This document shows, piece after piece, positions 29,008 to 54,652 of a stretch of DNA of 64,000 nucleotides; position 1 is the stretch's first letter; each line of letters opens with the position of its first letter. The stretch comes from an uncultured Desulfosarcina sp. (GTDB lineage Bacteria; Desulfobacterota; Desulfobacteria; Desulfobacterales; Desulfosarcinaceae): the NCBI GenBank assembly GCA_963674945.2, contig CAXXWQ010000003.1, positions 576,001 to 640,000 on the forward strand, written 5' to 3'. The position numbers and the translations under genes are program-made. Under the pieces are notes generated by a model that did not search any database, was not told the origin of the DNA, and was given only the letters and a program-made list of their open reading frames with translations.

Positions 29008-29122
29008 AGGAGCCAGAAGCCAGAATGAATCTGAAGTCGCTTCGCTCCATCGATTGCATAAAATGGATCGAACCGAAGGCGAATACCTGATTCTGGATTC
29101 TGAATTCTGACTCCTGGATTCT
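29008..29122. repeat. Inverted 7-mer tandem arrays around a ~60-bp core
   Basis: Left AGGAGCC AGAAGCC AGAAT; right ATTCTGG ATTCTGA ATTCTGA CTCCTGG ATTCT. Confidence 0.7.
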
Positions 29123-40136: not shown

Positions 40137-40252
40137 CACCATAACAAGAAACATGTATCACATGGATTTTCAAACGGATGCGGCCGCACTGTTCCGGAAA
40201 TCCGAAAACTGAGTCACCATTTCTCGCTTTGCGGCGTTGCGAGACAGGAAGG

Positions 40253-41887
40253 ATGGCGAACGCCATGACGGACGCCATGGCCAATGATACCGCCCAATTG
40301 CAAGCCAGGACCCGTTCGACACGGGTCTACCTGGACTACTACAGTCTTGCCGAGGCACCCTTTGCCATCACACCGGATCCGGACTTTCTCTTCTTCTCGG
40401 GTTCTCTCCAGCAGATATTGGAAAAGATCCACTACGCCATTGACGGCCGGATGGGATTCGTCCTGCTCACCGGCGAGGTGGGAACGGGCAAAACCACCGT
40501 TTGCCGAACCTTGCTGGACCGGCTCGACGGAAAGGCGGACACCGTCTACGTGGTCAACCCTTCCGTTTCCGGCCGCGAACTGTTGTCCGGTATCCTCGAC
40601 GACCTGAACGAAACGGTACCGCCCAAAGCAACCAAAAAGGATCTGATCGACAGGCTGAATAACCGGCTGCTCGAAAATGGCGTTCAACGCCCCCTGGTCG
40701 TAATCATCGACGAGGCACAGACCATGCCGCCGGAAACCCTGGAGGATCTTCGCCTGTTATCCAACCTGGAGACGGACAAGCACAAACTCATCCAGGTGAT
40801 TCTGTCCGGCCAGCCCGAGCTTTCCGGACTATTGGAAAAGGCGAGCCTTCGGCAGTTGCGGCAACGCATCGCCATTCATTGCCGACTCACCCCCCTGTCC
40901 GCCGACGAAACGGGCGCCTATATTGCCCGGCGGCTGTTCGTGGCCGGCAACCAGGGACAGGTCCGGTTCTCCCGATCCGCGATACGCCTGATCCACAGGC
41001 GGTCTTGTGGGATTCCACGACTGATCAACAAAATATGCGATTTCGCCCTTACCGCAGGTTATGTGACAGATACATCGACCATCGGAACACCCCATGTACG
41101 AAAGGCGTTGGCGGAGTCGGCGGTTCCCGGTCTCGACACCCTCGGGAAACGATTCGTCGGCCATTCTCTCTTTGGGCCGACAGCTGCCATCGCGGCACTG
41201 ATTCTGCTTATCGTCTCCGGTTTCGGCATCGCTACATGGTCATCCGTGGCAATCGCTCCCGGTGATTCCATGGCGCGTCAAGAAACCGGCAGATCGACGG
41301 TATCGACGACAGCCCGCCGTACACCGGATATGCGCCCCCTTTCCACAACCATGAAAGATAAGATCGCATCCGAAATCCCCGTAACCGACACTCCGGCAGC
41401 CGACAGGGATACCGGCGAGTCCTTGCAGGAGATGGCGCAAACGAACTTTCGATCCACGGTCTATGCACTTCAATTGGGTTCCTATCGTTCGGAAGAATGG
41501 GCCGAACGTGGCGCGGCCCAGTTCGCGGAAAGGGGAATCCCCGCCCAATGGCAGAGGCTGCGTGGTGGAAAGTGGTATCGGGTCTTCACCGGAAAGTTCG
41601 ATACGCTCGATCAGGCAAATCACTACAAAATCGAAAACGGATTGATATCGGCAATGGTCATCAATGCTCCTTTTTCGGTGAAGGTGATCTCCCGGGAACC
41701 GGGCGTCCGCGATACAGATCTTCCGGTGCTTCTTTCCGAGATGGGTTATGACAGCATCATGGAAACAAATGTGACCGGCGACAAAGAGTGCCACACCGGG
41801 GTGTTCAAATCCATGGCGGACGCATCTGCAACCGCCGGGCGAATCAATGGATGCCGCCGTTTGCTGGCCCAGGTGGTCGCCCGATAA
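40253..41887 (+). CDS. ExeA/MshM-like AAA ATPase with SPOR-like C-terminus
   Basis: PFAITPDP, GEVGTGKT, IIDEAQ, GQPEL, GIPRLIN, TM, LQLGSY. Start uncertain. Confidence 0.85.
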   Translation: MANAMTDAMANDTAQLQARTRSTRVYLDYYSLAEAPFAITPDPDFLFFSGSLQQILEKIHYAIDGRMGFVLLTGEVGTGKTTVCRTLLDRLDGKADTVYVVNPSVSGRELLSGILDDLNETVPPKATKKDLIDRLNNRLLENGVQRPLVVIIDEAQTMPPETLEDLRLLSNLETDKHKLIQVILSGQPELSGLLEKASLRQLRQRIAIHCRLTPLSADETGAYIARRLFVAGNQGQVRFSRSAIRLIHRRSCGIPRLINKICDFALTAGYVTDTSTIGTPHVRKALAESAVPGLDTLGKRFVGHSLFGPTAAIAALILLIVSGFGIATWSSVAIAPGDSMARQETGRSTVSTTARRTPDMRPLSTTMKDKIASEIPVTDTPAADRDTGESLQEMAQTNFRSTVYALQLGSYRSEEWAERGAAQFAERGIPAQWQRLRGGKWYRVFTGKFDTLDQANHYKIENGLISAMVINAPFSVKVISREPGVRDTDLPVLLSEMGYDSIMETNVTGDKECHTGVFKSMADASATAGRINGCRRLLAQVVAR

Positions 41888-41934
41888 CCCGACGGCCGAC
41901 CTGAATCGGAAGATGACTGATGTAAGGTGACTTC

Positions 41935-43095
41935 ATGAGTTTGTTGAACGATGCGCTGAGAAAAAAAGATCGGGAGGCGACACGAATGCCCGCACCGGAA
42001 AGTCCCTTCCGGCGCACGGGGCGGTGGAGGAACGTAAAGTGGCTTCTCTGGCCGACCGCGGTCGTTCTGGTGATCTCTTCGGCCCTGGTCGGGATGCACT
42101 TCGTTCCGTCCACCGCCGAAAACCGGCAATTGGCGGCCGACCATAAAGATCCGGGTACCCTGCCCCCATTGGCGGGAAAATCGACGGCAAAAAATGCCGA
42201 CACAACACCACTGCCCCGGCAGGCCCGGGAAGTCGTCCGGATCGATCCACCATCGGCACTGCCGGCGGCAGCCAATGGGAAACATACCGATCCTGCCCGG
42301 CCACGGGATCTTGAGCCCATTCCCCTGCAATTGGGGGTGGTCGAAAAGAAGAGAAGCGTAATCCCACCGCACACGAAAGATCGAAATCATCCCTCCCATG
42401 GCGGCGGTGCCCCAATCGCGACGATGGTCAGTGACAGGCCGGAGGATAGTGACGCGCAAACCAATGCGTCGTCTGGCGTTCCCTCGGACGAAATCGAGCC
42501 CTTCTACCGAAAGGCGCTGACAAACCATCGAGAGGGCCGCCTGGCAGAGGCCCTTCGCCTCTACCGAAAAGTCCTCGCAGCCGATCCCAACCATGAAGGG
42601 GCCATGATGAATCTGGCTGCCATCGCTTTGGCGCAGGCCGACTACCGGCAGGCCCAAACGCTTCTTACGCGACTGGCGCACAGGCAGCCCCGACCGAAGG
42701 GTGTATTGTTGAACCTGGCCATCGCCGCCATCGGCATTGGCGACCATTCGACGGCATTGGCGTATCTGGACCGGGCCGGGCAGGAATCGGATGCGCCGAC
42801 CTGGGACATTCGGTTTCACCGTGCCGTTGCCTACTCCCAACTGAACCGCCCCCAGGACGCACTGGCCCTATACGAAGCAGTGATGGCAGAACGGCCCGAC
42901 GATCCACGGCTTCGATTCAATCTGGCCGTCACCTATGACCGCCTTGGCGATTATGAAAAGGCGCTGCCCCACTATGAAGCAGCCGTCCATCATAACGGCG
43001 CCTCACCGAAAATGGACGAAGCGGCCATCACCCGGCGGATCAGGACCCTTCGACGGCACTTGGATGAAACGCGGCAAGGGGAAAAGGGACAGTAA
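41935..43095 (+). CDS. TPR protein (MshN-like)
   Basis: MSLLNDALRK, TM, low-complexity linker, C-terminal TPRs. Confidence 0.75.
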   Translation: MSLLNDALRKKDREATRMPAPESPFRRTGRWRNVKWLLWPTAVVLVISSALVGMHFVPSTAENRQLAADHKDPGTLPPLAGKSTAKNADTTPLPRQAREVVRIDPPSALPAAANGKHTDPARPRDLEPIPLQLGVVEKKRSVIPPHTKDRNHPSHGGGAPIATMVSDRPEDSDAQTNASSGVPSDEIEPFYRKALTNHREGRLAEALRLYRKVLAADPNHEGAMMNLAAIALAQADYRQAQTLLTRLAHRQPRPKGVLLNLAIAAIGIGDHSTALAYLDRAGQESDAPTWDIRFHRAVAYSQLNRPQDALALYEAVMAERPDDPRLRFNLAVTYDRLGDYEKALPHYEAAVHHNGASPKMDEAAITRRIRTLRRHLDETRQGEKGQ

Positions 43096-43096
43096 C

Positions 43097-44746
43097 ATGG
43101 CAAAACGTATCGGTGACATTCTTATCGAACTCGGCTTCATCGACCGCGATCAGTTGGAGATGGCCGTAACCGAATCCAAAAAAACCGGTGTCATGCTCGG
43201 GGACGTGCTGTTGCGTCTGGACTGGGTCACCCAGGAACAACTGCAGATGAGTCTCGCCGTACAGAGCGGCGCAAAGCTTCTGGATACCGATGCCATCAAA
43301 GTGGATCCGGGGCTCGTCGCCCAGGTTCCCCAGTCTTTCGTTACCGCCCACGGCATCCTGCCGCTGCAAAAACGCGACGACACGATTCTGGCTGCCACCA
43401 ACAACCCCTTCGACGTCGTAGCCAAGGATCAGCTGGCCCGTATCACCGGGTGCCGCGTGGAGACCTATATCGCGTCCAAGGACTGGCTCTCCGGTTCCAT
43501 CGAACTTTATTACCATACGGCCCTGGCCATCGATACGGACATCGACCGCATCACCCGCACTACGGTAACGGGCGACGGATTCGAAGAGAACCAGATCGTT
43601 TTGCTGGGCAACCGTATTTTGGAAAAGGGATTGGTACTGGGCGCCAGCGACATCCATGTGGTGCCGGACGTCAAGCTGACCCGAATCTATTACCGAATCG
43701 ACGGTGTCCTGCAACAGACGTTTCTCTTTCCCATCCGTTTCCACAAGAGCCTGGTCACCCGGTTAAAAATCATGGGGGACATGGACATCTCCAACCCCAA
43801 CATCCCCCATGACGGAAGACTCCAATATTCCGGTGACATCGGCGACATCGACGTACGGGTCTCCACTTTCCCCACACATCTGGGCGAAACCGTGGTCATG
43901 CGGCTTCTGGTCTACAGCAAGGTGGTCGGTGATATCCGTCGCCTGGGGCTGGAAGAGACGGATTACGAGGTGTTTGTCAAACAGATCCAAAGGCCCTACG
44001 GTTTGATCGTGGCAACCGGTCCCACCGGTTCGGGAAAGACCACGACCCTCTACTCGGCCATCATGACAATCAACAATCCCAACATCAACGTGATGACCGT
44101 GGAGGATCCCATCGAGTATATCATCCCCACCATCCGTCAGACAGCCGTCAACCCCAAGGCGGGGCTCACCTTCGGCAATGCCCTGCGGTCGGCCATGCGA
44201 CAGGACCCGGACATCATCCTTGTTGGCGAGATCCGGGACACGGAGACGGCCGATCTGGCCCTTCGGGCTTCCATGACCGGCCACTTGGTCTTTTCCACCC
44301 TGCATACCAACGACGCCGCATCGGCCATCAACCGGCTTCTGGATCTGGGAGTGAACAAGGGAATTCTGGCATCTTCCCTGAGTATGGTCATCGCCCAGCG
44401 CCTGGTACGGAAGATTTGTACCAATTGCTGCGAACATGCGGTGCCCACCGAACGTCAGGCGGCGATATTCGACCGGCACGGCATCCCCGTTCCCGACCGA
44501 CTGGCCGTACCCGTTGGATGTGAATCGTGCTATCAGGCCGGCTACCGGGGAAGGACAGGCATTTACGAACTGATTCGGGTGGACCGGGAAATTCAACGTC
44601 TGATCTTCGAAGGCGCCCTGCAAAGCACCATCGAAGAATCGGCAGTGCGTTCGGGCACCAACCTGATGCTAACGCAAGCCCTGAAAAAGGCCGCCGACGG
44701 CATCACTTCCTTCGAAGAGGTCTACCGGGTGGTTGCCGATGCCTAG
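43097..44746 (+). CDS. GspE/PilB/MshE pilus assembly ATPase
   Basis: GPTGSGKT, EDPIEY, RQDPD..GEIRD, TGH..STLHTN, CxxC pairs; MshEN-like N-terminus. Confidence 0.93.
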   Translation: MAKRIGDILIELGFIDRDQLEMAVTESKKTGVMLGDVLLRLDWVTQEQLQMSLAVQSGAKLLDTDAIKVDPGLVAQVPQSFVTAHGILPLQKRDDTILAATNNPFDVVAKDQLARITGCRVETYIASKDWLSGSIELYYHTALAIDTDIDRITRTTVTGDGFEENQIVLLGNRILEKGLVLGASDIHVVPDVKLTRIYYRIDGVLQQTFLFPIRFHKSLVTRLKIMGDMDISNPNIPHDGRLQYSGDIGDIDVRVSTFPTHLGETVVMRLLVYSKVVGDIRRLGLEETDYEVFVKQIQRPYGLIVATGPTGSGKTTTLYSAIMTINNPNINVMTVEDPIEYIIPTIRQTAVNPKAGLTFGNALRSAMRQDPDIILVGEIRDTETADLALRASMTGHLVFSTLHTNDAASAINRLLDLGVNKGILASSLSMVIAQRLVRKICTNCCEHAVPTERQAAIFDRHGIPVPDRLAVPVGCESCYQAGYRGRTGIYELIRVDREIQRLIFEGALQSTIEESAVRSGTNLMLTQALKKAADGITSFEEVYRVVADA

Positions 44747-45944
44747 TTTCCGCTACCAGGCCATCGATCCGGCCGGTCAACTCATAAAGGGCAGTGCCAT
44801 CGCCGCCAGTAACCGGGAACTGGAGGAACGGCTGGCGGAAAAAGGCATCACCCTGGTTTCCGGCCATGTAAAAAAAGAGAATTGGCTGAGCAAAGGTATT
44901 TTCGGAGAAAGGGTTCGACCGCGGGACAAGATCGAATTCTACCACCGTTTGCACCAGACCCTGGAACTGGGACTTCCCATGCTCTCGGCCCTGGAAGAGA
45001 ATGCCTCCGGGCTCCCATCCAAAGCCATGCGCCGGATCGTCGACGAGATACGGGTCGCCATCGAAAACGGCAACACGTTCCATTCGGCCATCTCCCGGTT
45101 TCCCAAGGTATTCGAGCCCCTGGATCTGGCCATCACGCGCATGGGGGAAGAGAGCGGCGTACTCCCCAAATGTCTCAGGGATCTCTCCTCGTTTCTGGAG
45201 TGGAAGGAGGAGATTCGATCCACGGTCCGTCGCGCGGCCATCTACCCATCTTTCATCATTCTCGTCATCGTGGCGGTTCTCGGCGTCTGGGTGGGGTATG
45301 TGCTGCCCCAGCTGGCCGTATTATTGAAACAGATGGGCGTAGCACTGCCCGCCATGACCCGATTCACCCTGTATCTGAGCGACATTTTTCATCAATGGTG
45401 GGGCGCCATGATTCTCCTCCCCGGTCTCCTTGCCATCGGTATTATTCTGATGAATAAAACGGAAAAGGGGAGCATTTTTCTTCACCGACAGGCGCTCAAG
45501 CTCCCCATCATCGGCGGGATCCTCTTCAATATCGCCCTGGCACGGCTCAGCCAGAATTTTGCCACCATGTACCAGTCCGGCATGTCCATCAATGCCATTT
45601 TCGAAATTCTGTCCCAAAGAGTCTTGAGCAATCGCTACCTCGAAATGCGGGTGAGAGGGGGCTTTGAGGGGGTACAACGGGGCGAATCCATCTCCGACAG
45701 CTTCGAAAAGGCCGGCGGTTTTCCGCCGCTCCTGCTCGGGGCCATTCGAAACGGTGAAACCACCGGCACCCTGGATACGGCCTTCTATCGCCTGGGAGAG
45801 TATTACGATCGCGAAGCCAAACGATCCGTGGAGACGATGATCGCGGCCTTAGAGCCCCTGTCCATCGTCATGCTGGGAGGAATCTTCGGATTCATCATCC
45901 TCTCCATTCTCTTGCCGCTTTATGATGTGATTGGGAACTTTTAA
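44739..45944 (+). CDS. GspF/PilC/MshG platform protein
   Basis: GEESG.L, YP, GETTG.LD, LEP; three TMs. Confidence 0.9.
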   Translation: MPSFRYQAIDPAGQLIKGSAIAASNRELEERLAEKGITLVSGHVKKENWLSKGIFGERVRPRDKIEFYHRLHQTLELGLPMLSALEENASGLPSKAMRRIVDEIRVAIENGNTFHSAISRFPKVFEPLDLAITRMGEESGVLPKCLRDLSSFLEWKEEIRSTVRRAAIYPSFIILVIVAVLGVWVGYVLPQLAVLLKQMGVALPAMTRFTLYLSDIFHQWWGAMILLPGLLAIGIILMNKTEKGSIFLHRQALKLPIIGGILFNIALARLSQNFATMYQSGMSINAIFEILSQRVLSNRYLEMRVRGGFEGVQRGESISDSFEKAGGFPPLLLGAIRNGETTGTLDTAFYRLGEYYDREAKRSVETMIAALEPLSIVMLGGIFGFIILSILLPLYDVIGNF

Positions 45945-45950
45945 ATTTCG

Positions 45951-45999
45951 GTTCACTGTTCACTGTTCTCGGTTCAAGGTTCAAGGTTCAAGGTTCAAC
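45951..45999 (+). repeat. 7 x GTTCnnn heptamer array
   Basis: GTTCACT GTTCACT GTTCTCG GTTCAAG GTTCAAG GTTCAAG GTTCAAC. Confidence 0.9.
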
Positions 46000-46004
46000 A
46001 AAAA

Positions 46005-46394
46005 TCAGTTAAATTTTGATCCTTTGAAATCATTATTTCGTAAATACCGAAGCAGGCCTCCGTTGAGCCGAGCCGTCGTCTCTGCTTTTTCGAATAGCTT
46101 TTCAAACTGTTCTTGGTTGAGATATCCAGCGTCCAGGGCCACGTATAGCAGACTTTTCACATCAGAGAGGGATCCGCTCGCAATGGAAAGAAATTGGACA
46201 AACTCCTTGTTGCCTCCTCGTCCAAAACCTTCGGCGATATTGGCCATGATCGACACTGCTGCGCGCCGGATTTGATCCCGTAACCCGAAATCTCTTGCGA
46301 ATTCACCAATATTTGACGCCAAATAGATGGCCTTGGTCAGTTCCCTGGCCTTTTTCCAGGCATCGATTTCCTCAAACGTTCTTATTGATGCCAT
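46005..46394 (-). CDS. Four helix bundle protein (23S rRNA IVP / Avd-like family)
   Basis: FEEIDAW, FGLRDQIRRAAVSIMANIAEG, F..IA.GS; RBS GAGG. Confidence 0.92.
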   Translation of the reverse strand: MASIRTFEEIDAWKKARELTKAIYLASNIGEFARDFGLRDQIRRAAVSIMANIAEGFGRGGNKEFVQFLSIASGSLSDVKSLLYVALDAGYLNQEQFEKLFEKAETTARLNGGLLRYLRNNDFKGSKFN

Positions 46395-46431
46395 TTCAAT
46401 TCCTCATGTTTTGAAACCTATAAACATTTAC

Positions 46432-46508
46432 CATTAACCAGAAACCGAGAACTGGGAACCGGGAACCTTGAACTAGGAACGGGGAACCTTGAACTGGGAA
46501 CCGGAAGC
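46432..46508 (+). repeat. nnnGAAC heptamer array, inverted relative to 45951-45999
   Basis: CGAGAAC TGGGAAC CGGGAAC CTTGAAC TAGGAAC GGGGAAC CTTGAAC TGGGAAC plus degenerate units. Confidence 0.9.
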
Positions 46509-48554
46509 CTAATAGGCTTCCATTATCTCATCCGACGTCAACGCCTGATCGTATACCGCCGCCTGATCGATCAACCCTGTAAAAAAATGGCCGGTGCCCT
46601 CGTAATCGGCGCCGATCGTCAAGTCCACGCCGGATACATCGGGTAGACTCACGGTCACGGTGGTTTCGTCGAGGGTGCCATTGAAGTAGATCTGCATTCG
46701 ATCCGTTGCATCGTCGTAGACAAAGGCCACGAAGTGCCACTGATCGGAAATCATGGCGATCGACCCGCGCGTCATTGCGGTGTGATGGCCGTCACCGATA
46801 CCGCCGTAGGGCCGACCATTGTCCACTCCCAAAAAATAGAAGTAATTTCCCCTATGCCGGGAAACGATTCTCCCATGGGGACGCGATGCCCTCTCCCGGA
46901 TCCATGCCGTCAACGTCAATCCACCGGTCAGTTCAAAATCCGGATGATCGGCGACGAGTACCCGATCACCGCCGTCCAGACGCAGCGCACGATTGGGAAT
47001 TTCATGGCGATCGCTTGTATACACGGCGCCGGCGAGTGTGCCGTCATGTCCTCCTGTGCCGAGATCCTCCAGGTTTCCATCGAATCCATAGCCGGCAACC
47101 CGGTCGGGATGGCCGGCCCCATTCAAGATCCCGCGGATTTCTTCATCGGTCAGAGCCCTGTCGAAGATGGCCACGTCGTCGATATCACCATTGAATCCAC
47201 CGCCATGCCCCTGGGAATCTCCGCCGATAGCGAGATTCACGCCGTTTCTTGCCGGCAGTTGCAGGGGCGTCGAAGTGATCCGCTCGGTTCCGTCGAAATG
47301 AAGGAACATCCGGTCGATGTCATCGTCATAGACGAAGGCCAGATGGTTCCAATGGTCCAGGGACATCAACAAAGATTTCCCCGTGACGGCCCAATCCACG
47401 TCGTCGCCGATGCCGCCGTATGGACGCCCGTTGTCCACCCCAAGAAAATAGAAATAGTAGCCGGTGCGCCGGCTGATCACCTTGGCGAAGGATCCGGTGG
47501 CGGTCTCCTTGACCCATGCCATCAGGGTCAATTGGCCCGTAATGTGAAGACTGCTGTGGTCAAAGACACGCACGTAGTCACCGGATCCATCGAAGGAAAG
47601 GGAGGTCCCGCCGGTATCGGGCGTGTCCGTGGACCAGGTCGTGTCTCCCACCAGCGTCCCATCGTTACCCCCGATACCATCTCTGGCAGTCGGTCCCGCC
47701 CCTTCATCGAAATCCCAGCTGGAGACCGGTGAAGGGCCGCCGGCGCAGGTCGCCACGGTGATGTCGAACCAGCGTCGGACCGGAGTTCCCCCTGCATCGG
47801 CCAGAGTCACGTCCACCGTGTAGGCACCTGGCGACGCTGGACTTCCACTCAAATGACAGGCGTCACCCGCCGGGGTCAGGGTCATCCAGGCCGGTTGGGA
47901 CGTCGTCGACCAGGTGTATGCGCCCGCCCCGCCTTCTGCGAACAGATCTCCGCTATAGGCCTGCCCGTTGCATCCATCGGGCAGTTCGTTGTTGAGCAGG
48001 GTCAGCCGGCCGGCGGTCCGGTCGAAGCAGCCGGCGCGGTTTCGAAGATCCGCCAGGAAGACAACTTCGACCAAATCCATAGAAGAGAGGGTGGCGTTTC
48101 CGGCATAGGCACCGGAAACCGCCGGCGTGGAATCGACGGTAAGATCGGAGGATCCGCTGACGATAAAAAACGCGGCATCGGCCGATCCACCGGCGTTGAT
48201 GGAAGTGGATTCCCGGCCGCACAGGCCCCCGCCGGCGGATGTGGCCAGATTGCCGTCGTACCCGTAAACGAAGGCCCGGTTCCAGGAATCATTTCGCACG
48301 CCGGATGCATCCGCGAATTCGGCGGCCGTGGGCAACCGGCCGTTGGCTATGCTCCAGGCGATGACGGATCGTGAGGCGTCGGCCATCCGGCTTCTGGCCG
48401 TTTCTGTCTTCAGCCGTTGGGTCACCGGTCCGATCAGGTTCAGTCCCGCACCGATCAGTGCACCGATGATGGCGATGGTCATGACGATGGGCATCAGGGC
48501 CATCCCGGACTGACTGCCGGCGTGTCGTGATGAACCTGGAAAAAATCGCCTCAT
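46509..48554 (-). CDS. Pilin-like protein with Ig-like and two LamG-like domains
   Basis: QSG|MALMPIVMTIAII; WDFDEG; duplicated YFYFLGVDNGRPYGGIGD; FNGDIDDVAIFDRALT. Confidence 0.8.
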   Translation of the reverse strand: MRRFFPGSSRHAGSQSGMALMPIVMTIAIIGALIGAGLNLIGPVTQRLKTETARSRMADASRSVIAWSIANGRLPTAAEFADASGVRNDSWNRAFVYGYDGNLATSAGGGLCGRESTSINAGGSADAAFFIVSGSSDLTVDSTPAVSGAYAGNATLSSMDLVEVVFLADLRNRAGCFDRTAGRLTLLNNELPDGCNGQAYSGDLFAEGGAGAYTWSTTSQPAWMTLTPAGDACHLSGSPASPGAYTVDVTLADAGGTPVRRWFDITVATCAGGPSPVSSWDFDEGAGPTARDGIGGNDGTLVGDTTWSTDTPDTGGTSLSFDGSGDYVRVFDHSSLHITGQLTLMAWVKETATGSFAKVISRRTGYYFYFLGVDNGRPYGGIGDDVDWAVTGKSLLMSLDHWNHLAFVYDDDIDRMFLHFDGTERITSTPLQLPARNGVNLAIGGDSQGHGGGFNGDIDDVAIFDRALTDEEIRGILNGAGHPDRVAGYGFDGNLEDLGTGGHDGTLAGAVYTSDRHEIPNRALRLDGGDRVLVADHPDFELTGGLTLTAWIRERASRPHGRIVSRHRGNYFYFLGVDNGRPYGGIGDGHHTAMTRGSIAMISDQWHFVAFVYDDATDRMQIYFNGTLDETTVTVSLPDVSGVDLTIGADYEGTGHFFTGLIDQAAVYDQALTSDEIMEAY

Positions 48555-48785
48555 GAGTGCCTCATACACCGCGTACTACGAATTAGATAAACAATCTGAA
48601 AAACGGTTTTCAGACGGATTAGTAAAAAGTTCAAGTTCATCATAGCGGTTGAAAAGAAAAATTCCCCGACCCCTCAAATAATTATTTTTAAAAGAACTTT
48701 TCTTTTCTATACCATCGGTAAAAAATGGGGAAACGATTCCCTCTTTCCATAAATGTTTTGCCATATTCGGCCTGGAAAAGTTTTT

Positions 48786-49796
48786 TCATGGGCTCACGGT
48801 CAGCACGAACGACCTTTTGGCACAATTGTCCAGATTCGATCCGGCACTGCAGGCGGAATCCAGTACCGGGTTGCTGTTGTCTCGAACCCAGACGGTGAGA
48901 AGATAACTTCCGGCGGTGGTGGGCGTGCCGCTGATCCGGATATGATCGGCATCGGTCCATGTGGCACTGTTTTCGGCCAAAAGAGAGCCGTCCGTGTCGA
49001 ATCCTATATTGTCGGTGTCCGTGTGGTCGCGAAAGTTCAGGCCGGCGGGTGCGGTACCGGTCGGGGTCTCTACACACCAGAGATAGTCGCCACCGGTGGA
49101 AAAGGGGACGCCGCCATCCACGTATAGGGTCGCGGAATAGGGGCTGGTGGTGCGCCCCGGCGGAAGCTCATTGTTGAGAACAATAAGTCGCGGTCCCCTG
49201 CACCCCACCTGGCCGCGCAGTTCGTTCAACGTCGCCCACCGGACGATGTCGTCATAGGGCTCTGTCCGGTTCATGTCGGTGGCATAATCGTCCACGTTGT
49301 CCAGACCGGTGGGATAGACATCGATCACCGTGGGGCCCGACACGGCAAGGTCGCCCGCGGTCTGGTTGTTGAAGTTCTCGCCGCCGCTGAGGATGACGAA
49401 TGCGACGTTGGCGACCGTTACCGGTGCCGTACAGGTCGCGTCGGGACATTGGCGTAAGGTAATTTGCGTGGTTTTCCGGGTGCACAGGTCGCCCGTGGCC
49501 GGATTCCCATCTGCTAGGTCGGCGTCGTAGATGTACTGAATGGGGCGGATCCAGCCGTCGTTGCGCTTGTTGACGATGCCGGGAAACTGGGTGAGTGTGG
49601 GCAGCACGCCTTCGTTGGCGGCGGCATGGCCGACGATGGCGGCGGCCCCTGCCGCGATGATCTCGGTGGATTCGATCCGTTTGGCACGAACGGACAAAGG
49701 ACCGATGAGGGACGCGCCGAACCCCACGATCAGACCGATGATCACCATGACGATGGCAACTTCGATGATGGTGAATCCGGCTTGTCGGCGGTTCAT
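48786..49796 (-). CDS. Minor pilin (prepilin cleavage motif) with Ig-like C-terminus
   Basis: QAG|FTIIEVAIVMVIIG; shares LR...GC...LNNELP with the 46509 protein. Confidence 0.85.
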   Translation of the reverse strand: MNRRQAGFTIIEVAIVMVIIGLIVGFGASLIGPLSVRAKRIESTEIIAAGAAAIVGHAAANEGVLPTLTQFPGIVNKRNDGWIRPIQYIYDADLADGNPATGDLCTRKTTQITLRQCPDATCTAPVTVANVAFVILSGGENFNNQTAGDLAVSGPTVIDVYPTGLDNVDDYATDMNRTEPYDDIVRWATLNELRGQVGCRGPRLIVLNNELPPGRTTSPYSATLYVDGGVPFSTGGDYLWCVETPTGTAPAGLNFRDHTDTDNIGFDTDGSLLAENSATWTDADHIRISGTPTTAGSYLLTVWVRDNSNPVLDSACSAGSNLDNCAKRSFVLTVSP

Positions 49797-49851
49797 GATC
49801 GCTCCAACGATATCGATTTTCCAGGGACCGTATCGATAAAAGGATTTCACG

Positions 49852-49892
49852 CGGCCGCCTCCCTCCTTACCATCGGGAACGGGAGGCGGCCG
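49852..49892 (-). terminator. Hairpin after the major pilin gene
   Basis: Perfect 12-bp stem CGGCCGCCTCCC / GGGAGGCGGCCG; no long U tract. Confidence 0.55.
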
Positions 49893-49922
49893 ATGGATCC
49901 GACCGTATGGATCGGATGAAGA

Positions 49923-50492
49923 TTACATGGGCATGTAAAATTGTGGCAGTGGATCGGTGGCAGCCGAATAGGCGGCACTGCCACGGATGTCTCCGGTGGT
50001 GGCGTCGCCATCGTCAAATTTGGTGTCGATCTCCAAAGCCACTTCCCAGGGCAGATTGTCGTATCGGATATAGTGACCGGCCTTTCCGTTTTGCGCACTC
50101 GTACGCCATATAACATAATAGATGTCACCGAAGGCGTGGTTCGGGTAGTCGCCTGCGGCACCGGTGTAATTGCCGGATATAACGCCCGCCAGGGCGAGGT
50201 CTTCAAACATCATCCCGGCTTCCCCAGTCGTAGTGATCTGTCCGCTGCCATTGCCTTCATTGGTATCGTTGGGTGGAATGTTGGCAATATTCTCATCTCC
50301 GGGATAGGCGCCGTATTTATCGTAAAAGGTATAGAAGGCCGCCCGCAGTTCATCGGCGGACTTGACCACCCGTTTGACCTTGGCGTTCTGGATCATGGAC
50401 TGCCCCTTGAGGACGCCACCGATGAGAAGTCCGATGATCACCAGCACGATGGCGATCTCGACCAGGGTAAATCCCTTTTGATTCCGTGTCAT
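49923..50492 (-). CDS. Probable major type IV pilin
   Basis: QKG|FTLVEIAIVLVIIGLLIGG; strong RBS GGAGG; own promoter and downstream hairpin. Confidence 0.88.
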   Translation of the reverse strand: MTRNQKGFTLVEIAIVLVIIGLLIGGVLKGQSMIQNAKVKRVVKSADELRAAFYTFYDKYGAYPGDENIANIPPNDTNEGNGSGQITTTGEAGMMFEDLALAGVISGNYTGAAGDYPNHAFGDIYYVIWRTSAQNGKAGHYIRYDNLPWEVALEIDTKFDDGDATTGDIRGSAAYSAATDPLPQFYMPM

Positions 50493-50573
50493 TTTTTCCT
50501 CCATGGTTAGTAAATTTTCGTTTCAGCATATCCGAAGAGCGACGCCGCTGCCGTTTTCACTCGATCAATTCCC

Positions 50574-50600
50574 TTATCGGTCTTCTGATTTTGCACTTTA
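50574..50600 (-). promoter_or_regulatory. Sigma-28-type promoter of the pilin gene
   Basis: Minus strand TAAA-N15-ACCGATAA. Confidence 0.65.
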
Positions 50601-50634
50601 GGTAAAATATCATTCACCTATTCAACTGATATCC

Positions 50635-52134
50635 CTATCCTTTTTGCCGAATGTGAGGGGTGATGAAAATCACCAGTTCACGGGTCTGGATCTGGTTGTC
50701 CGTGTGCTTGAAAAGGCCTCCGATCAAGGGAAGGCGTCCCAGACCGGAGACGCCTTCGTGACTCTTGTCCTTGGTCTGGCTGATCAATCCGGCGAGCACC
50801 AGGGTATTGCCGCCTTGCACCCGAACGGTGGTGGCCAGTTCCTGCAGATCGATGATGGGATTCTTGATGGACTGAACCGTCGTGGTCGAGGTGGGCAGCT
50901 CCACATCGGCCTCTTCCTGGATCCGGGTGATGGTGGGAACGATGTTCATGGTCACGACGCCGTCGCCGGCGATCTGAACGGCAATTCCCAACTGAAGTCC
51001 GAGAATGGCCCGTTTGATGCTCACACCGAAGGTGACCACCTTGGTATCGTCGTCGCGGTCGACGCCGTCGATATCGCCGTAGGGAAACTGAAAGCCGACG
51101 GTCATGAGTGCCGATTTGCCGTTCATCAGGGCCAGGTGGGGATTGGACAAAACGGAAACCTCCCCCTGGGTTTGCAGGAAATCCACCACCGTGCTCAATC
51201 CGCTCTGGTCGGCCAGGGTCAGGGTGGAGCCGCCGTTGAAATTCATGTTGAAACTGTCCACAAAAAAGCCCGATGCACTGGTAAAGGCCGCATCCATGGC
51301 CGTCCAGTCGATCCCCAGTTGATTGCGGTCGGTCAGCCGGACCTCCATGATCTTGGCCTCGATAAACACCTGCCGGGAAAGCGCTTCGGTCAAGGCATCC
51401 AGAAAACGCACCATGGCCTCCACCCGTTTGGGCAGATCCGACATGTAGATGAGCCCGCCGTTTCGATTGATGCGAACGTTTCCCGCCTCGGATTTGAGCG
51501 TCCCCAGGGTCTCTTCGATGGCGCTCCAGACGTCCGCCGTCTTCTCCTTCTTGGCGGTTTTCATGATGTATTTGCCGCTGACCCCGGCATCCTCCACGCT
51601 GGAGGCGAGCATGTCCCCCCCCACCTGGATGTCCGTCTCTCCCGGCATATCCAGGTAATCGAGGGCGTAGATCCGTTCCATGAAGGTCTTGACCATCAGC
51701 ATGTCACCTTCCACGCTCCATGCATACCCGGCCCCGTTTTTCACCACCATATCCATGGCCTCGCTAAAAGTGGCCTGTTTCAAATGCACCGTGACGGTCC
51801 GGGAAAGGTCCACGTCCGACGCCACGGACAGGTTCATGGGTGCATCCTGCATGATGGCAGAAAGGGCGGTGGAGAGGGGAACGTCGTTCAAGGTCATGGA
51901 ATAGAGGGTTTCCGGCAGGTCCAACTCCGTGGTCTTGGGGTTGATCTGCATGGGAAAAGGAGGCGGTCCCGGCGTCCGTGGTTCGATATCCCGCCGGATT
52001 GCGGCTTTTATCTGATCCCGCCGTACCGGTTCGATATCCGGCGCCGCCGGTGGCGTCGCCGCACATCCGGCAAAAAGGGACAAGGCCACGACCGCCCGGA
52101 TCATCCATCGAAAGCCTTGGCGTAATCGGTTCAT
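50635..52134 (-). CDS. Lipoprotein secretin (MshL-like)
   Basis: Lipobox FAG|C; QVFIEAKIMEV, GIDW, VLSNP, LGRLPLIGGLF, ELVIFITP. Confidence 0.9.
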   Translation of the reverse strand: MNRLRQGFRWMIRAVVALSLFAGCAATPPAAPDIEPVRRDQIKAAIRRDIEPRTPGPPPFPMQINPKTTELDLPETLYSMTLNDVPLSTALSAIMQDAPMNLSVASDVDLSRTVTVHLKQATFSEAMDMVVKNGAGYAWSVEGDMLMVKTFMERIYALDYLDMPGETDIQVGGDMLASSVEDAGVSGKYIMKTAKKEKTADVWSAIEETLGTLKSEAGNVRINRNGGLIYMSDLPKRVEAMVRFLDALTEALSRQVFIEAKIMEVRLTDRNQLGIDWTAMDAAFTSASGFFVDSFNMNFNGGSTLTLADQSGLSTVVDFLQTQGEVSVLSNPHLALMNGKSALMTVGFQFPYGDIDGVDRDDDTKVVTFGVSIKRAILGLQLGIAVQIAGDGVVTMNIVPTITRIQEEADVELPTSTTTVQSIKNPIIDLQELATTVRVQGGNTLVLAGLISQTKDKSHEGVSGLGRLPLIGGLFKHTDNQIQTRELVIFITPHIRQKG

Positions 52135-52174
52135 GGTCTCCTCGACAAAAATCTGGCGCAATGACAATGATCCA

Positions 52175-52717
52175 TCAGCGCATGGTTACCGAATGGGTAA
52201 CGGCAGGTGCCGCCAGGAACCAGCGCCGTCCCCCCTTGGCCAACAAAACGCCCCTGTCCGTAATTTCTCTGACGACGAATGCTCCGCATCTCTCTCCCTC
52301 CGTGTAAATATGCCCTCCCAGCATGGCCAGCGGACGGCTGGAGCCCCGGTCCTGAATGGCACGACGGGTCACGATACCGGTCAACGACGGCAACGATACC
52401 GGTTGCGCGACCGTCCGTTTTGGCATTGCGGCCGAAGGGGGCCTGGTTTGTTGCGTCTTTGGTGGCACCGGACTTGCCGCCGTCTTGAAACGTAGGGCCA
52501 GTTCATTCACCTCCGAACCGATCGATTCGGCCTTTTCGGTCATGATCGTTTTCAAATGACGCAGGGACCGATCCATGGCGTGGACCTGGGGGCTGTATCC
52601 GGACAGGGGCGTATCCACAAGCGACAGGAGGGCAAAACCGTTGAACGCTGCGACCAGAATACCGGCCATCAGCCACCCCCCCATCCACAGATGTTTCGCC
52701 ATTTTTTCCGATACCAT
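52175..52717 (-). CDS. MshK/PilP-like pilus protein
   Basis: TM, Pro-rich linker, LTGI..AML.G..Y.EG; directly upstream of the secretin. Confidence 0.55.
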   Translation of the reverse strand: MVSEKMAKHLWMGGWLMAGILVAAFNGFALLSLVDTPLSGYSPQVHAMDRSLRHLKTIMTEKAESIGSEVNELALRFKTAASPVPPKTQQTRPPSAAMPKRTVAQPVSLPSLTGIVTRRAIQDRGSSRPLAMLGGHIYTEGERCGAFVVREITDRGVLLAKGGRRWFLAAPAVTHSVTMR

Positions 52718-52718
52718 A

Positions 52719-53240
52719 TCAACCCGACCCTTCCGGCGACATCGGCGCATATCGATAATCGAAAGAGGCCTGCATCCGTCCGGTACGATGGTGTTCATCG
52801 AACGTCACATCGACGCGCCCGAGGTTCAGATAGGGATGTTCCTTTTCCACCGCCGTCAACCACGTCACGATTGCCGTGACCGAACCGGTGGCGAACACGT
52901 CGATGGGCACCGCCCGGTCCCCCTGGAAATTCGTTTTGGCCTCTACCCGCATCTGTGTCATGCCCGCTTCCCGGGAAATTCGTTTCAAGCCGTTTTCAAC
53001 AACCAGAAAACCCAACCCGAAAGAGTCTACCCGATGAACGAGACGGGCCTTTTGGGCACGTACCGCAGCAATTCCGGAACGATTCGCGTTGAGGTATCGC
53101 ATGTCCATTTTAAGGGCTTCCAGGTCCTGACGGCGCCGTTGCACGTCTGAAATCCGAACCATGTTCCATCCGGTCATGACCAACACCACGCCCCAAAGCA
53201 CACCGACGGCAAGCCATCGCTTATTGAATCGATCCATCAT
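52719..53240 (-). CDS. MshJ/PilO-like protein
   Basis: N-terminal TM plus coiled coil; operon position. Confidence 0.55.
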   Translation of the reverse strand: MMDRFNKRWLAVGVLWGVVLVMTGWNMVRISDVQRRRQDLEALKMDMRYLNANRSGIAAVRAQKARLVHRVDSFGLGFLVVENGLKRISREAGMTQMRVEAKTNFQGDRAVPIDVFATGSVTAIVTWLTAVEKEHPYLNLGRVDVTFDEHHRTGRMQASFDYRYAPMSPEGSG

Positions 53241-54652
53241 AGCAGATCCAGTCCTATGCGTATCCGGTATACCGGCCGGTCGTCGACACCCTCGGGCCGA
53301 ACAAGAGAGATTTCCACGTCCTTCTCATGGAGCATTGGGGCTTTGGATTCGAATCGACGGTTCAACCGACGGATAAACGCCTGCAAAGCGGCTCTGAATG
53401 TTTCGGGGTCGTCCCCATGAACGACAGCATCGAGGGTCAGACGCGGTGTCGAAGAGAGATCGACGGAAAGCTTTTCCATGGATACGGAATCGTCCAGGGC
53501 CAGCAGGGCCTGCATGGTGGATCTCGCGCCCGAAGGTCGCTGCAGCGATTGCCGGATTTCCTCGATGGAGGAAGTGGTCTGGTCGAGTACCATGGCAGGT
53601 GGTTGATCACCGGACATCCGCAACCGCTGGATCTGCCGGTCGGCATCGTCGGACCATTTGACCAAAAACGCCGTTTCGATAAATAAAAGCACGGCCACCA
53701 CCGCACCGACGGCGATTCCGGTCCATTGTACCGTCCGCCAGTGCAATTCCCGTTTGAGCGGTTTATGGGAAATGGCGAGACTGTCCGTCATGGCCAGATC
53801 ATCCATGGAAAAAGGCAAACAACAAACGGGCATGATTCCGCCCACACAGCCATCTTCCGGCGACCGGGGATCGGTCAGCGGCCGGATTTCCCGACCCAGC
53901 AACTCCGCCAGTGCACTCTGGGCCGCCCCGTCGGATGACAGCAGATACAGCGTTTCCACCGCACTTTTGGTCTTTTGGGAATAGTGGTAAAAGGACTGAT
54001 TGATTTCGTAGTTCAACAGATTGTAGGTCTGTGTGGCATCATCGGTGGAATTGGGGAGTTGAATCGTTCGAGAAAAAAGATATTGTCCCCGAAAGAACAG
54101 GTACAGAAAGCAATCCGTCTCACACAGGTGGATTACACCGATCCCTTTCCCGTCGAATCCGTCCACCAGGTCCTTCAGCTTGGCCTGCCATAAAAGGGCG
54201 GGCGAAGTAATACGAACGGGGTTGATCCCCAAATCCGCCATTCGTTCATAAAGCCCATATGCAGCGGGTTCCTGGAGAAAATAGGTGTACAGGACCGATC
54301 CTCCATCCGGATCCGTGGCCATGGCGTAGGAAAAAAAATCCGGTGCCTTTTCGAGCGCGGGTTGCTCGGATCGTAGCTTTCGTTCGATAAAGGCTTCCAC
54401 CACTGATTTCTTGCGCGCCTGGAAACGGTCTGCGCGACTTCCGATCCAATAGTCCGGGACCACAAGCAACTGGTTGACCGCACGGTTGGCCAGTTTGGCA
54501 AGTGGATCGGCGTGCCCGCCGTCCTGGGACATGAAATCGTCCATGCTGCGGCTGGCGATCTCCATCTGGCTTCCGTTGCCCTGAATCTCGGCAAAACGCA
54601 CCCCTTGTTCACTGGCGACACAGATCAATTGTTTCCGGCGTCGTATCATCAT
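53237..54652 (-). CDS. MshI / PilM-PilN-like protein
   Basis: FSRTI..EINQSFYHY PilM-like segment followed by TM and periplasmic part. Confidence 0.6.
   Translation of the reverse strand: MMIRRRKQLICVASEQGVRFAEIQGNGSQMEIASRSMDDFMSQDGGHADPLAKLANRAVNQLLVVPDYWIGSRADRFQARKKSVVEAFIERKLRSEQPALEKAPDFFSYAMATDPDGGSVLYTYFLQEPAAYGLYERMADLGINPVRITSPALLWQAKLKDLVDGFDGKGIGVIHLCETDCFLYLFFRGQYLFSRTIQLPNSTDDATQTYNLLNYEINQSFYHYSQKTKSAVETLYLLSSDGAAQSALAELLGREIRPLTDPRSPEDGCVGGIMPVCCLPFSMDDLAMTDSLAISHKPLKRELHWRTVQWTGIAVGAVVAVLLFIETAFLVKWSDDADRQIQRLRMSGDQPPAMVLDQTTSSIEEIRQSLQRPSGARSTMQALLALDDSVSMEKLSVDLSSTPRLTLDAVVHGDDPETFRAALQAFIRRLNRRFESKAPMLHEKDVEISLVRPEGVDDRPVYRIRIGLDLL

Follow-up and report, generated by a model that had tools for sequence, protein, structure and literature searches.

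A four-helix-bundle gene of the S23p/Avd-like type and the two inverted arrays of 7-base repeats that enclose it very probably constitute one cassette, which in the genus of an uncultured Desulfosarcina sp. is present, absent, flipped or exchanged at a single junction between pilC and a LamG gene. What is new from this locus is the allele series at one junction, a deletion series and a negative test for G-U pairing in the arms; we found no description of a gene-plus-arms cassette outside rRNA in the open-licence literature (supplements aside). By the window we mean the whole stretch of DNA that was analyzed (64,000 nt), and positions are counted from its first letter.

Anatomy and protein family of the cassette

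The cassette occupies positions 45945..46508 (564 bp), from the stop codon of a PilC/GspF-type gene (44733..45944, plus strand), the last of an ATPase-TPR-GspE-PilC run, to the convergent stop codon of a LamG/Ig-domain gene (46509..48569, minus strand), the last of a pilin-secretin run. Both of these genes lie outside the cassette, and the LamG gene is upstream of the cassette gene on the same strand. The initial annotation had the unit filling the gap between convergent stops at 45944 and 46509 and being AT-richer than the pilus genes, and both points were borne out, with a GC content of 45.6% in the cassette, 55.8% in pilC and 60.2% in the LamG gene, that is, 10–15 GC points below both flanks. 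Window positions 40178–54652 carry two convergent type IV pilus/type II secretion-like gene runs (ATPase, TPR, GspE and PilC; secretin, pilins and the LamG-Ig protein), and the stretch that separates the LamG gene from the pilin-like gene after it (window 48600–48799) has a GC content of 36%, in surroundings of about 57–62%.

The arm downstream of the cassette gene (45951..45998, plus strand) consists of seven GTTCNNN units at exact 7-nt spacing (GTTC starts at 45951, 45958, 45965, 45972, 45979, 45986, and 45993), which read NNNGAAC in the gene's mRNA. The arm upstream of the gene (46439..46504, plus strand) consists of eight NNNGAAC units (GAAC starts from 46449 to 46498 in 7-nt steps) plus one degenerate unit, and reads GTTCNNN in the mRNA; AAAC at 46442 is in register, and further inward a weaker period of 7 can be followed to about 46425. 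The seven GTTC and at least eight GAAC units of the initial annotation, with exact complements between the arms (GTTCAAG/CTTGAAC and GTTCTCG/CGAGAAC), were recovered as it had described them. The longest inverted match between the arms is 51 nt at 76% (45946–45996 with 46456–46506), and there is also pairing in several registers offset by 7 nt. The scores of the left array (31), the right array (16) and the inverted match (54) were matched in none of 2000 dinucleotide shuffles, whose maxima were 11, 9.5, and 34, respectively.

When the minus strand was folded, the arms paired and the gene was looped out (z −3.2; 0/100 shuffles), and the plus strand behaved likewise. The models predict 35 expected end-to-end pairs on the minus strand and 42 on the plus strand, which amounts to the closing stem expected of an intervening sequence (IVS); the arm stem is interrupted, and the longest perfect helix at the locus is 11 bp. 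An 8-bp hairpin (46503..46521) straddles the cassette edge and the stop codon of the LamG gene. There was no long direct repeat within 45700–46800, a promoter scan returned no sites, the one terminator-like site lay inside the ORF and was at chance level, and Rfam had no match within the 64-kb window.

The gene itself (46005..46394, minus strand) encodes a protein of 129 aa with a pI of 9.3 and a net charge of +3, and is preceded by a Shine-Dalgarno-like GAGGA (46401..46405, minus strand), 6 nt before the ATG, which is a putative ribosome-binding site. The protein is a member of the known family TIGR02436/PF05635 (TIGR02436: E 2.9e-31, 107.9 bits against a curated cut-off of 24; PF05635: E 1.4e-34, 119 against a curated cut-off of 33.8). 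Its fold model (pLDDT 93.6), which replaced a poor earlier one made from a shallow alignment (pTM 0.41), has four helices at residues 11–27, 36–58, 62–88, and 94–120. The model resembles 2GSC (Xcc0516; TM 0.83, rmsd 1.5 Å, with a sequence match at E 5e-17) and 2RLD (BT_0352; TM 0.75) and, more weakly, the Avd protein of diversity-generating retroelements (DGRs) (4DWL; TM 0.70, 14% identity, E 0.026), so that the relation to Avd proposed in the initial annotation is upheld at the level of predicted fold, and the link of the family to 23S rRNA IVSs that it named is documented (PMC4990558). 2GSC is described as a toroidal homopentamer (PMC4990558), and Avd as a pentamer with a positive charge to which a structured RNA element binds (bioRxiv 10.1101/2023.10.23.563531). 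Five subunits and arms of 4–5 units suggest a match of one arm unit per subunit, which we offer as a conjecture.

Alleles of the junction within the genus

Of the 31 genomes of the genus, 18 had a pilC orthologue according to a PilC query. Thirteen of these were informative, namely 12 in which the end of the LamG gene follows pilC and L003, whose contig breaks off within the far arm; the remaining five were excluded because the neighbour of pilC was different or truncated. Two of the 13 sites were empty (L004 and L048), the two stop codons abutting with a gap of 0 bp, which supplies the empty orthologous sites that the initial annotation had proposed to look for. Six carried the four-helix-bundle cassette (L001, L003, and L007–L010), three carried gene-less arrays (L005, L006, and L049), in which a short interior is flanked on either side by heptamers, and two carried other hairpins (L011 and L047). 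Judged by eye, the arms of L005 and L006 are only loosely complementary.

Pairs of alleles were compared in turn with the divergence of the adjoining pilC. L003 and L007 carry one type of cassette in opposite orientations (local score 749 inverted, 53 direct), and in both of them the final pilC bases are in register with the array. Their cassette genes are 90.6% identical and their pilC genes 91.7%; the gene is thus as diverged as pilC, which fits inversion in place, while two independent insertions may be an alternative. Between L007 and L008, pilC is 96.8% alike, the cassette gene is 63.1% alike and the arm units differ, a combination that indicates replacement. On the pilC tree, L005 groups with L007 as its sister (support 100/100); it is without the gene. 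A single well-supported clade of that tree, made up of seven of these genomes, includes the empty, flipped, replaced and gene-less states. The two orientations of the cassette occur between species. In L008, L009, and L010, the frame of the gene reads through the downstream arm (142 aa) and ends at the edge of the LamG gene. Because the junction is convergent, the gene may lie behind a transcribed operon in either orientation, and both orientations may survive for this reason.

No target-site duplication was visible between filled and empty junctions across the 13 alleles, which are 2–26% diverged, so that a short one may have eroded. We also looked for further clean empty sites of three other cassettes in five close genomes each: two cassettes gave no match, and the third turned up a cassette in common, together with a locus where the downstream gene was different. 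Taken as a comparison of genomes, the alleles at the pilC/LamG site show that the cassette has been gained, lost, flipped and swapped together with its arms. The site is a natural experiment, offering empty, flipped, swapped and gene-less alleles beside a flanking gene that is 91–98% identical.

Homologues, arm inheritance and gene-less arrays

For a wider view, we surveyed the best 80 of at least 593 homologue loci in GTDB genomes of many phyla, and after five without full flanks were dropped, 75 were retained. Period-7 arms were present on both sides of 48 of these homologues and on at least one side of 68, leaving seven with no arm; any other period from 4 to 12 was found in at most 4/75, and most arms had 4–5 units. 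The initial annotation had proposed that the unit could be an IVS-like or mobile mini-cassette, a reading to be given up if the gene proved stably syntenic and the repeats were not enriched around homologues, and had suggested counting inverted period-7 flanks. What we found was an orthologous site that is empty, inverted or replaced, and both arms at 48/75 homologues against 18/159 upstream and 15/145 downstream control flanks of other ORFs at the same loci; the mobile mini-cassette reading is supported by this site polymorphism and repeat enrichment. Within the 75 loci, the gene's own downstream arm was the best inverted partner in 16 cases and among the top three in 38, where about three would be expected. 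Rates were lower in a second set from the genus and the order, in which 30/69 genes had both arms; in five distant genomes, 5/16 genes had both arms and 10/16 had either.

The upstream neighbour was co-stranded with the cassette gene in 70/72 cases, compared with 68% of ORFs in the source genome (G000). Housekeeping pairs, for example atpA-atpG, uvrB-uvrA and kdtA-lpxK, predominated among the scanned neighbours (73/143 proteins, loci L051–L092), and no transposase, recombinase or reverse transcriptase (RT) family was found among these 73 at E ≤ 1e-12. In three unrelated hosts (L052, L054, and L065), cassettes lie inside or adjoin DUF6079 gene clusters, and at L167 and L022 (G020:C1:4261067-4263385) three four-helix-bundle matches follow one another in tandem at intervals of about 1 kb, those examined having near-identical arms.

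A scorable arm was available for 128 of 159 genes, and for these we compared arms and proteins. Similarity between arms rose with protein identity, whatever the host (mean cosine 0.56 at 65–80% identity in near genomes), and was at background below about 55% identity, as it was for diverged paralogues within one genome (0.10–0.15). For the nearest distant protein, the similarity of the arms exceeded the average in only 23/52 cases. These comparisons show at the sequence level that the arm tracks the lineage of the gene and not the host, that is, co-inheritance. Simple co-inheritance explains the trend, and specific binding is not needed for it.

Arrays are not special to the pilC/LamG locus, a point to be added to the initial annotation. 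The source genome has 301 period-7 arrays, which form 46 inverted and 13 direct neighbour pairs, against 41–98 arrays for periods 5, 8, 10, and 11. It also has 10 TIGR02436-family matches, and most of these have heptamer arms built from units of other types. Nine of the 10 four-helix-bundle matches lie in two stretches of contig C2 (360000–452000 and 615000–640000), where some arms comprise 30–40 perfect units. On the same C2, inverted GGCTGTA/TACAGCC arms surround a putative PIN-domain toxin-antitoxin pair, named by eye from its translation (G000:C2:349672-350695), and a sole GxxExxY gene lies between inverted period-10 arrays (G000:C2:376512-376853; 35 nt, 34 matching), a gene-between-arms layout with a different period and a different protein family.

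Gene-less pairs of the GTTC family of the pilC/LamG locus exist in the source genome too. The window itself contains a gene-less element of another family, with CAGAAT-type inverted heptamer arms (29008..29122; E 2e-34 to a profile of eight other copies), which has a hairpin-like conserved core and lies between convergent genes. Its family has 63 near-full copies among 100 loci in G000, only three of them between divergent genes. The first 57 and last 60 bases of this element are about 90% identical to both ends of a gene-bearing sister cassette on C2, and a partly deleted intermediate is found at C2:627474-627821. The resulting series, from full cassette through partial to gene-less, shows by sequence comparison that these gene-less copies are deletion derivatives. 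A gene-bearing element accompanied by many internally deleted copies that retain its ends is also the arrangement of transposon/MITE pairs and of REP/RAYT, which the cassette resembles in this respect; it differs from them in that its gene has no transposase fold and in that the two Y1 transposase matches of G000 lack heptamer arms in the flanks examined. Like insertion sequences (IS) and MITEs, it has terminal inverted repeats, but no target duplication was seen and no transposase was found in cis or among the 73/143 neighbours scanned.

Paired heptamer arrays have been described in Xanthomonas (intergenic GGGAATC arrays; PMC4692102), Geobacter metallireducens (class 3 sites, MTYCTGA; PMC2700814) and Beggiatoaceae (TAACTGA arrays; PMC4679880). 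They share with ours the period of 7, mostly 4–5 units, an intergenic position and, often, inverted pairing, and the arms of the element at 29008–29122 agree with the Geobacter consensus. The main texts of these reports take the arrays to be either G-quadruplexes or regulator sites and make no mention of four-helix-bundle or S23 genes.

The arms could instead be a selfish or useful unit in themselves (a REP/MITE-like family of paired arrays with a part in mRNA processing or stability), with the four-helix-bundle gene as just one hitchhiking cargo. Gene-less arrays outnumber genes in G000 by about 30 to 1 (301 arrays, 10 gene matches), make up three alleles of the pilC/LamG site and have been described in Xanthomonas and Geobacter in pairs without any gene (PMC4692102, PMC2700814); arrays in G000 are few between divergent genes (20/238 intergenic arrays versus 715/3507 gaps), and other cargo, the putative PIN toxin-antitoxin pair, also occurs between inverted arrays. 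Against this, the commonest gene-less family of G000 aligns with a gene-bearing cassette at both ends and a partly deleted intermediate exists, so that gene loss fits better than repeated capture, and 68/75 homologues have arms.

A survey of 91 genomes of the order for two array types bears on both sides. Arrays were present in 39/59 genomes with the gene and in 8/32 without it (Fisher p 2e-4, which overstates the case because the genomes are kin), and the counts of genes and arrays were correlated over the 91 genomes (rho 0.54), although with a threshold of 10 matches the association was not significant (p 0.10). Array presence climbed with gene number (8/32, 5/15, 15/23, and 19/21), which counts against a hitchhiking gene. 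Neither of the two array types was found in 20 of the 59 genomes with the gene, and six of the 32 without a gene match had at least 12 array matches each; these array-rich, gene-free genomes speak for independent arms, and in them either the gene is not strictly required or it was missed in fragmented assemblies. On balance we consider it unlikely that the arms are the primary unit, and prefer the cassette of gene and arms.

Known relatives and a proposed route of movement

The Coxiella burnetii IVS contains an S23p ORF, has heptamer repeats at a mapped RNase III cleavage site and is excised (PMC4990558). Our cassette shares with it the S23p family, a similar size (428–444 nt for the IVS), inverted ends, heptamers in tandem on the upstream side of the ORF, a patchy distribution and a GC content below that of the host (PMC4990558). 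It differs in that its arms have 7–9 degenerate units forming an interrupted stem (11 bp perfect, versus a near-perfect 28 bp in Coxiella) and in that the cassette occurs in either orientation, with many paralogues and gene-less derivatives. Unlike a 23S rRNA IVS, it lies between protein-coding genes (pilC and LamG); in anatomy it is like an ORF-bearing IVS, and it falls outside IVS membership because it is not in rRNA. Its protein is akin to 2GSC and 2RLD in S23p-family sequence and in fold, 2GSC being described as a homopentamer (PMC4990558), and to Avd (4DWL, 8UB7) in being basic and having a four-helix fold, the Avd pentamer binding a structured RNA element (bioRxiv 10.1101/2023.10.23.563531, PMC10053308). 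The cassette is not a DGR, since there is no RT, template repeat or variable repeat beside its gene and its neighbours are pilus genes.

Genes that could move the cassette were sought in G000. It has three partial RT matches, all far from any cassette, and two matches to Y1, the only transposase family searched genome-wide; none of the examined flanks of these Y1 transposase and RT genes had heptamer arms. No recombinase was found among the scanned genes adjoining the cassette site. Among 15 of 18 joints covered in four contig sets of one study, no inversion joint was found, such contigs being prone to drop rare variants. A joint skipping 45938–46592 in a single contig (depth 3.8; short side of 25 letters) was rejected as probably from another organism. 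Of 72 pattern matches in viral contigs, none was confirmed.

Since no transposase, target duplication, G-U bias or excision reads were found, we infer the route of movement. Our proposal is that the cassette is moved by the host's own DNA recombination or repair, which would act on the repeat arms; we regard this route as plausible at slightly less than an even chance. The arms are predicted to pair into a stem of about 35–40 pairs on either strand, in several 7-nt registers, and the protein, as a basic pentamer, would bind its own 4–5-unit arms as single strands and hold them together. Inversion could come about when the inverted arms recombine with each other or when a template switch takes place between them; in exchange or insertion, arm units would anneal to arrays, or to short look-alikes, already present at gene ends. 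Host read-through transcription would likely express the cassette as a long stem-loop RNA, which RNase III would cut, by analogy with the Coxiella IVS. For the whole explanation, in which the cassette, host-recombination movement and read-through expression as a stem-loop RNA cut by RNase III are taken together, we see the chances of its being right and wrong as equal.

Movement through RNA would run differently: RNase III would free the cassette, an Avd-like pentamer would bind it, and a borrowed host RT would copy it back at the gene ends of transcribed operons. The fold likeness to Avd, an RT cofactor of DGRs (bioRxiv 10.1101/2023.10.23.563531), the excision shown for the Coxiella IVS (PMC4990558), the three RT matches in G000 and the near-exclusive position downstream of same-strand genes are consistent with such a route. 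The RT matches, however, are partial and far from cassettes, no RT is among the 73 scanned neighbours, co-orientation is also explained by selection for expression, and in-place inversion requires no RNA step. Nor do the arms have a G-U bias: on the mRNA strand, mismatches between arms at 58 loci comprised 95 G-U and 100 A-C, and without a G-U excess nothing favours RNA over DNA pairing. We hold an RNA route to be improbable. Least credible by far is an origin of the arrays by chance, as simple repeats, or by faulty assembly, next to an ordinary hypothetical gene that is inherited stably: period-7 arrays are common in the source genome and 11% of control flanks have one, but none of the 2000 shuffles matched the arrays, one public contig covers the whole stretch with no differing letter (though it may be the source of this DNA), and the empty, inverted and replaced alleles together with the homologue survey refute it.

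Beyond this locus, we put forward with some diffidence, as possible but on the unlikely side, a more general reading of the family. TIGR02436 genes would be widespread transposase-free mobile elements, rRNA IVSs would be copies that landed in rRNA, the excess of intergenic 7-base repeats would be gene-less progeny, and the Avd-like pentamer would recognise its own arms and drive insertion, inversion and exchange at gene ends. The cassette links three loose ends in the literature: what the S23p/IVS protein does, where rRNA IVSs come from, and why paired 7-base repeats between bacterial genes are in excess.
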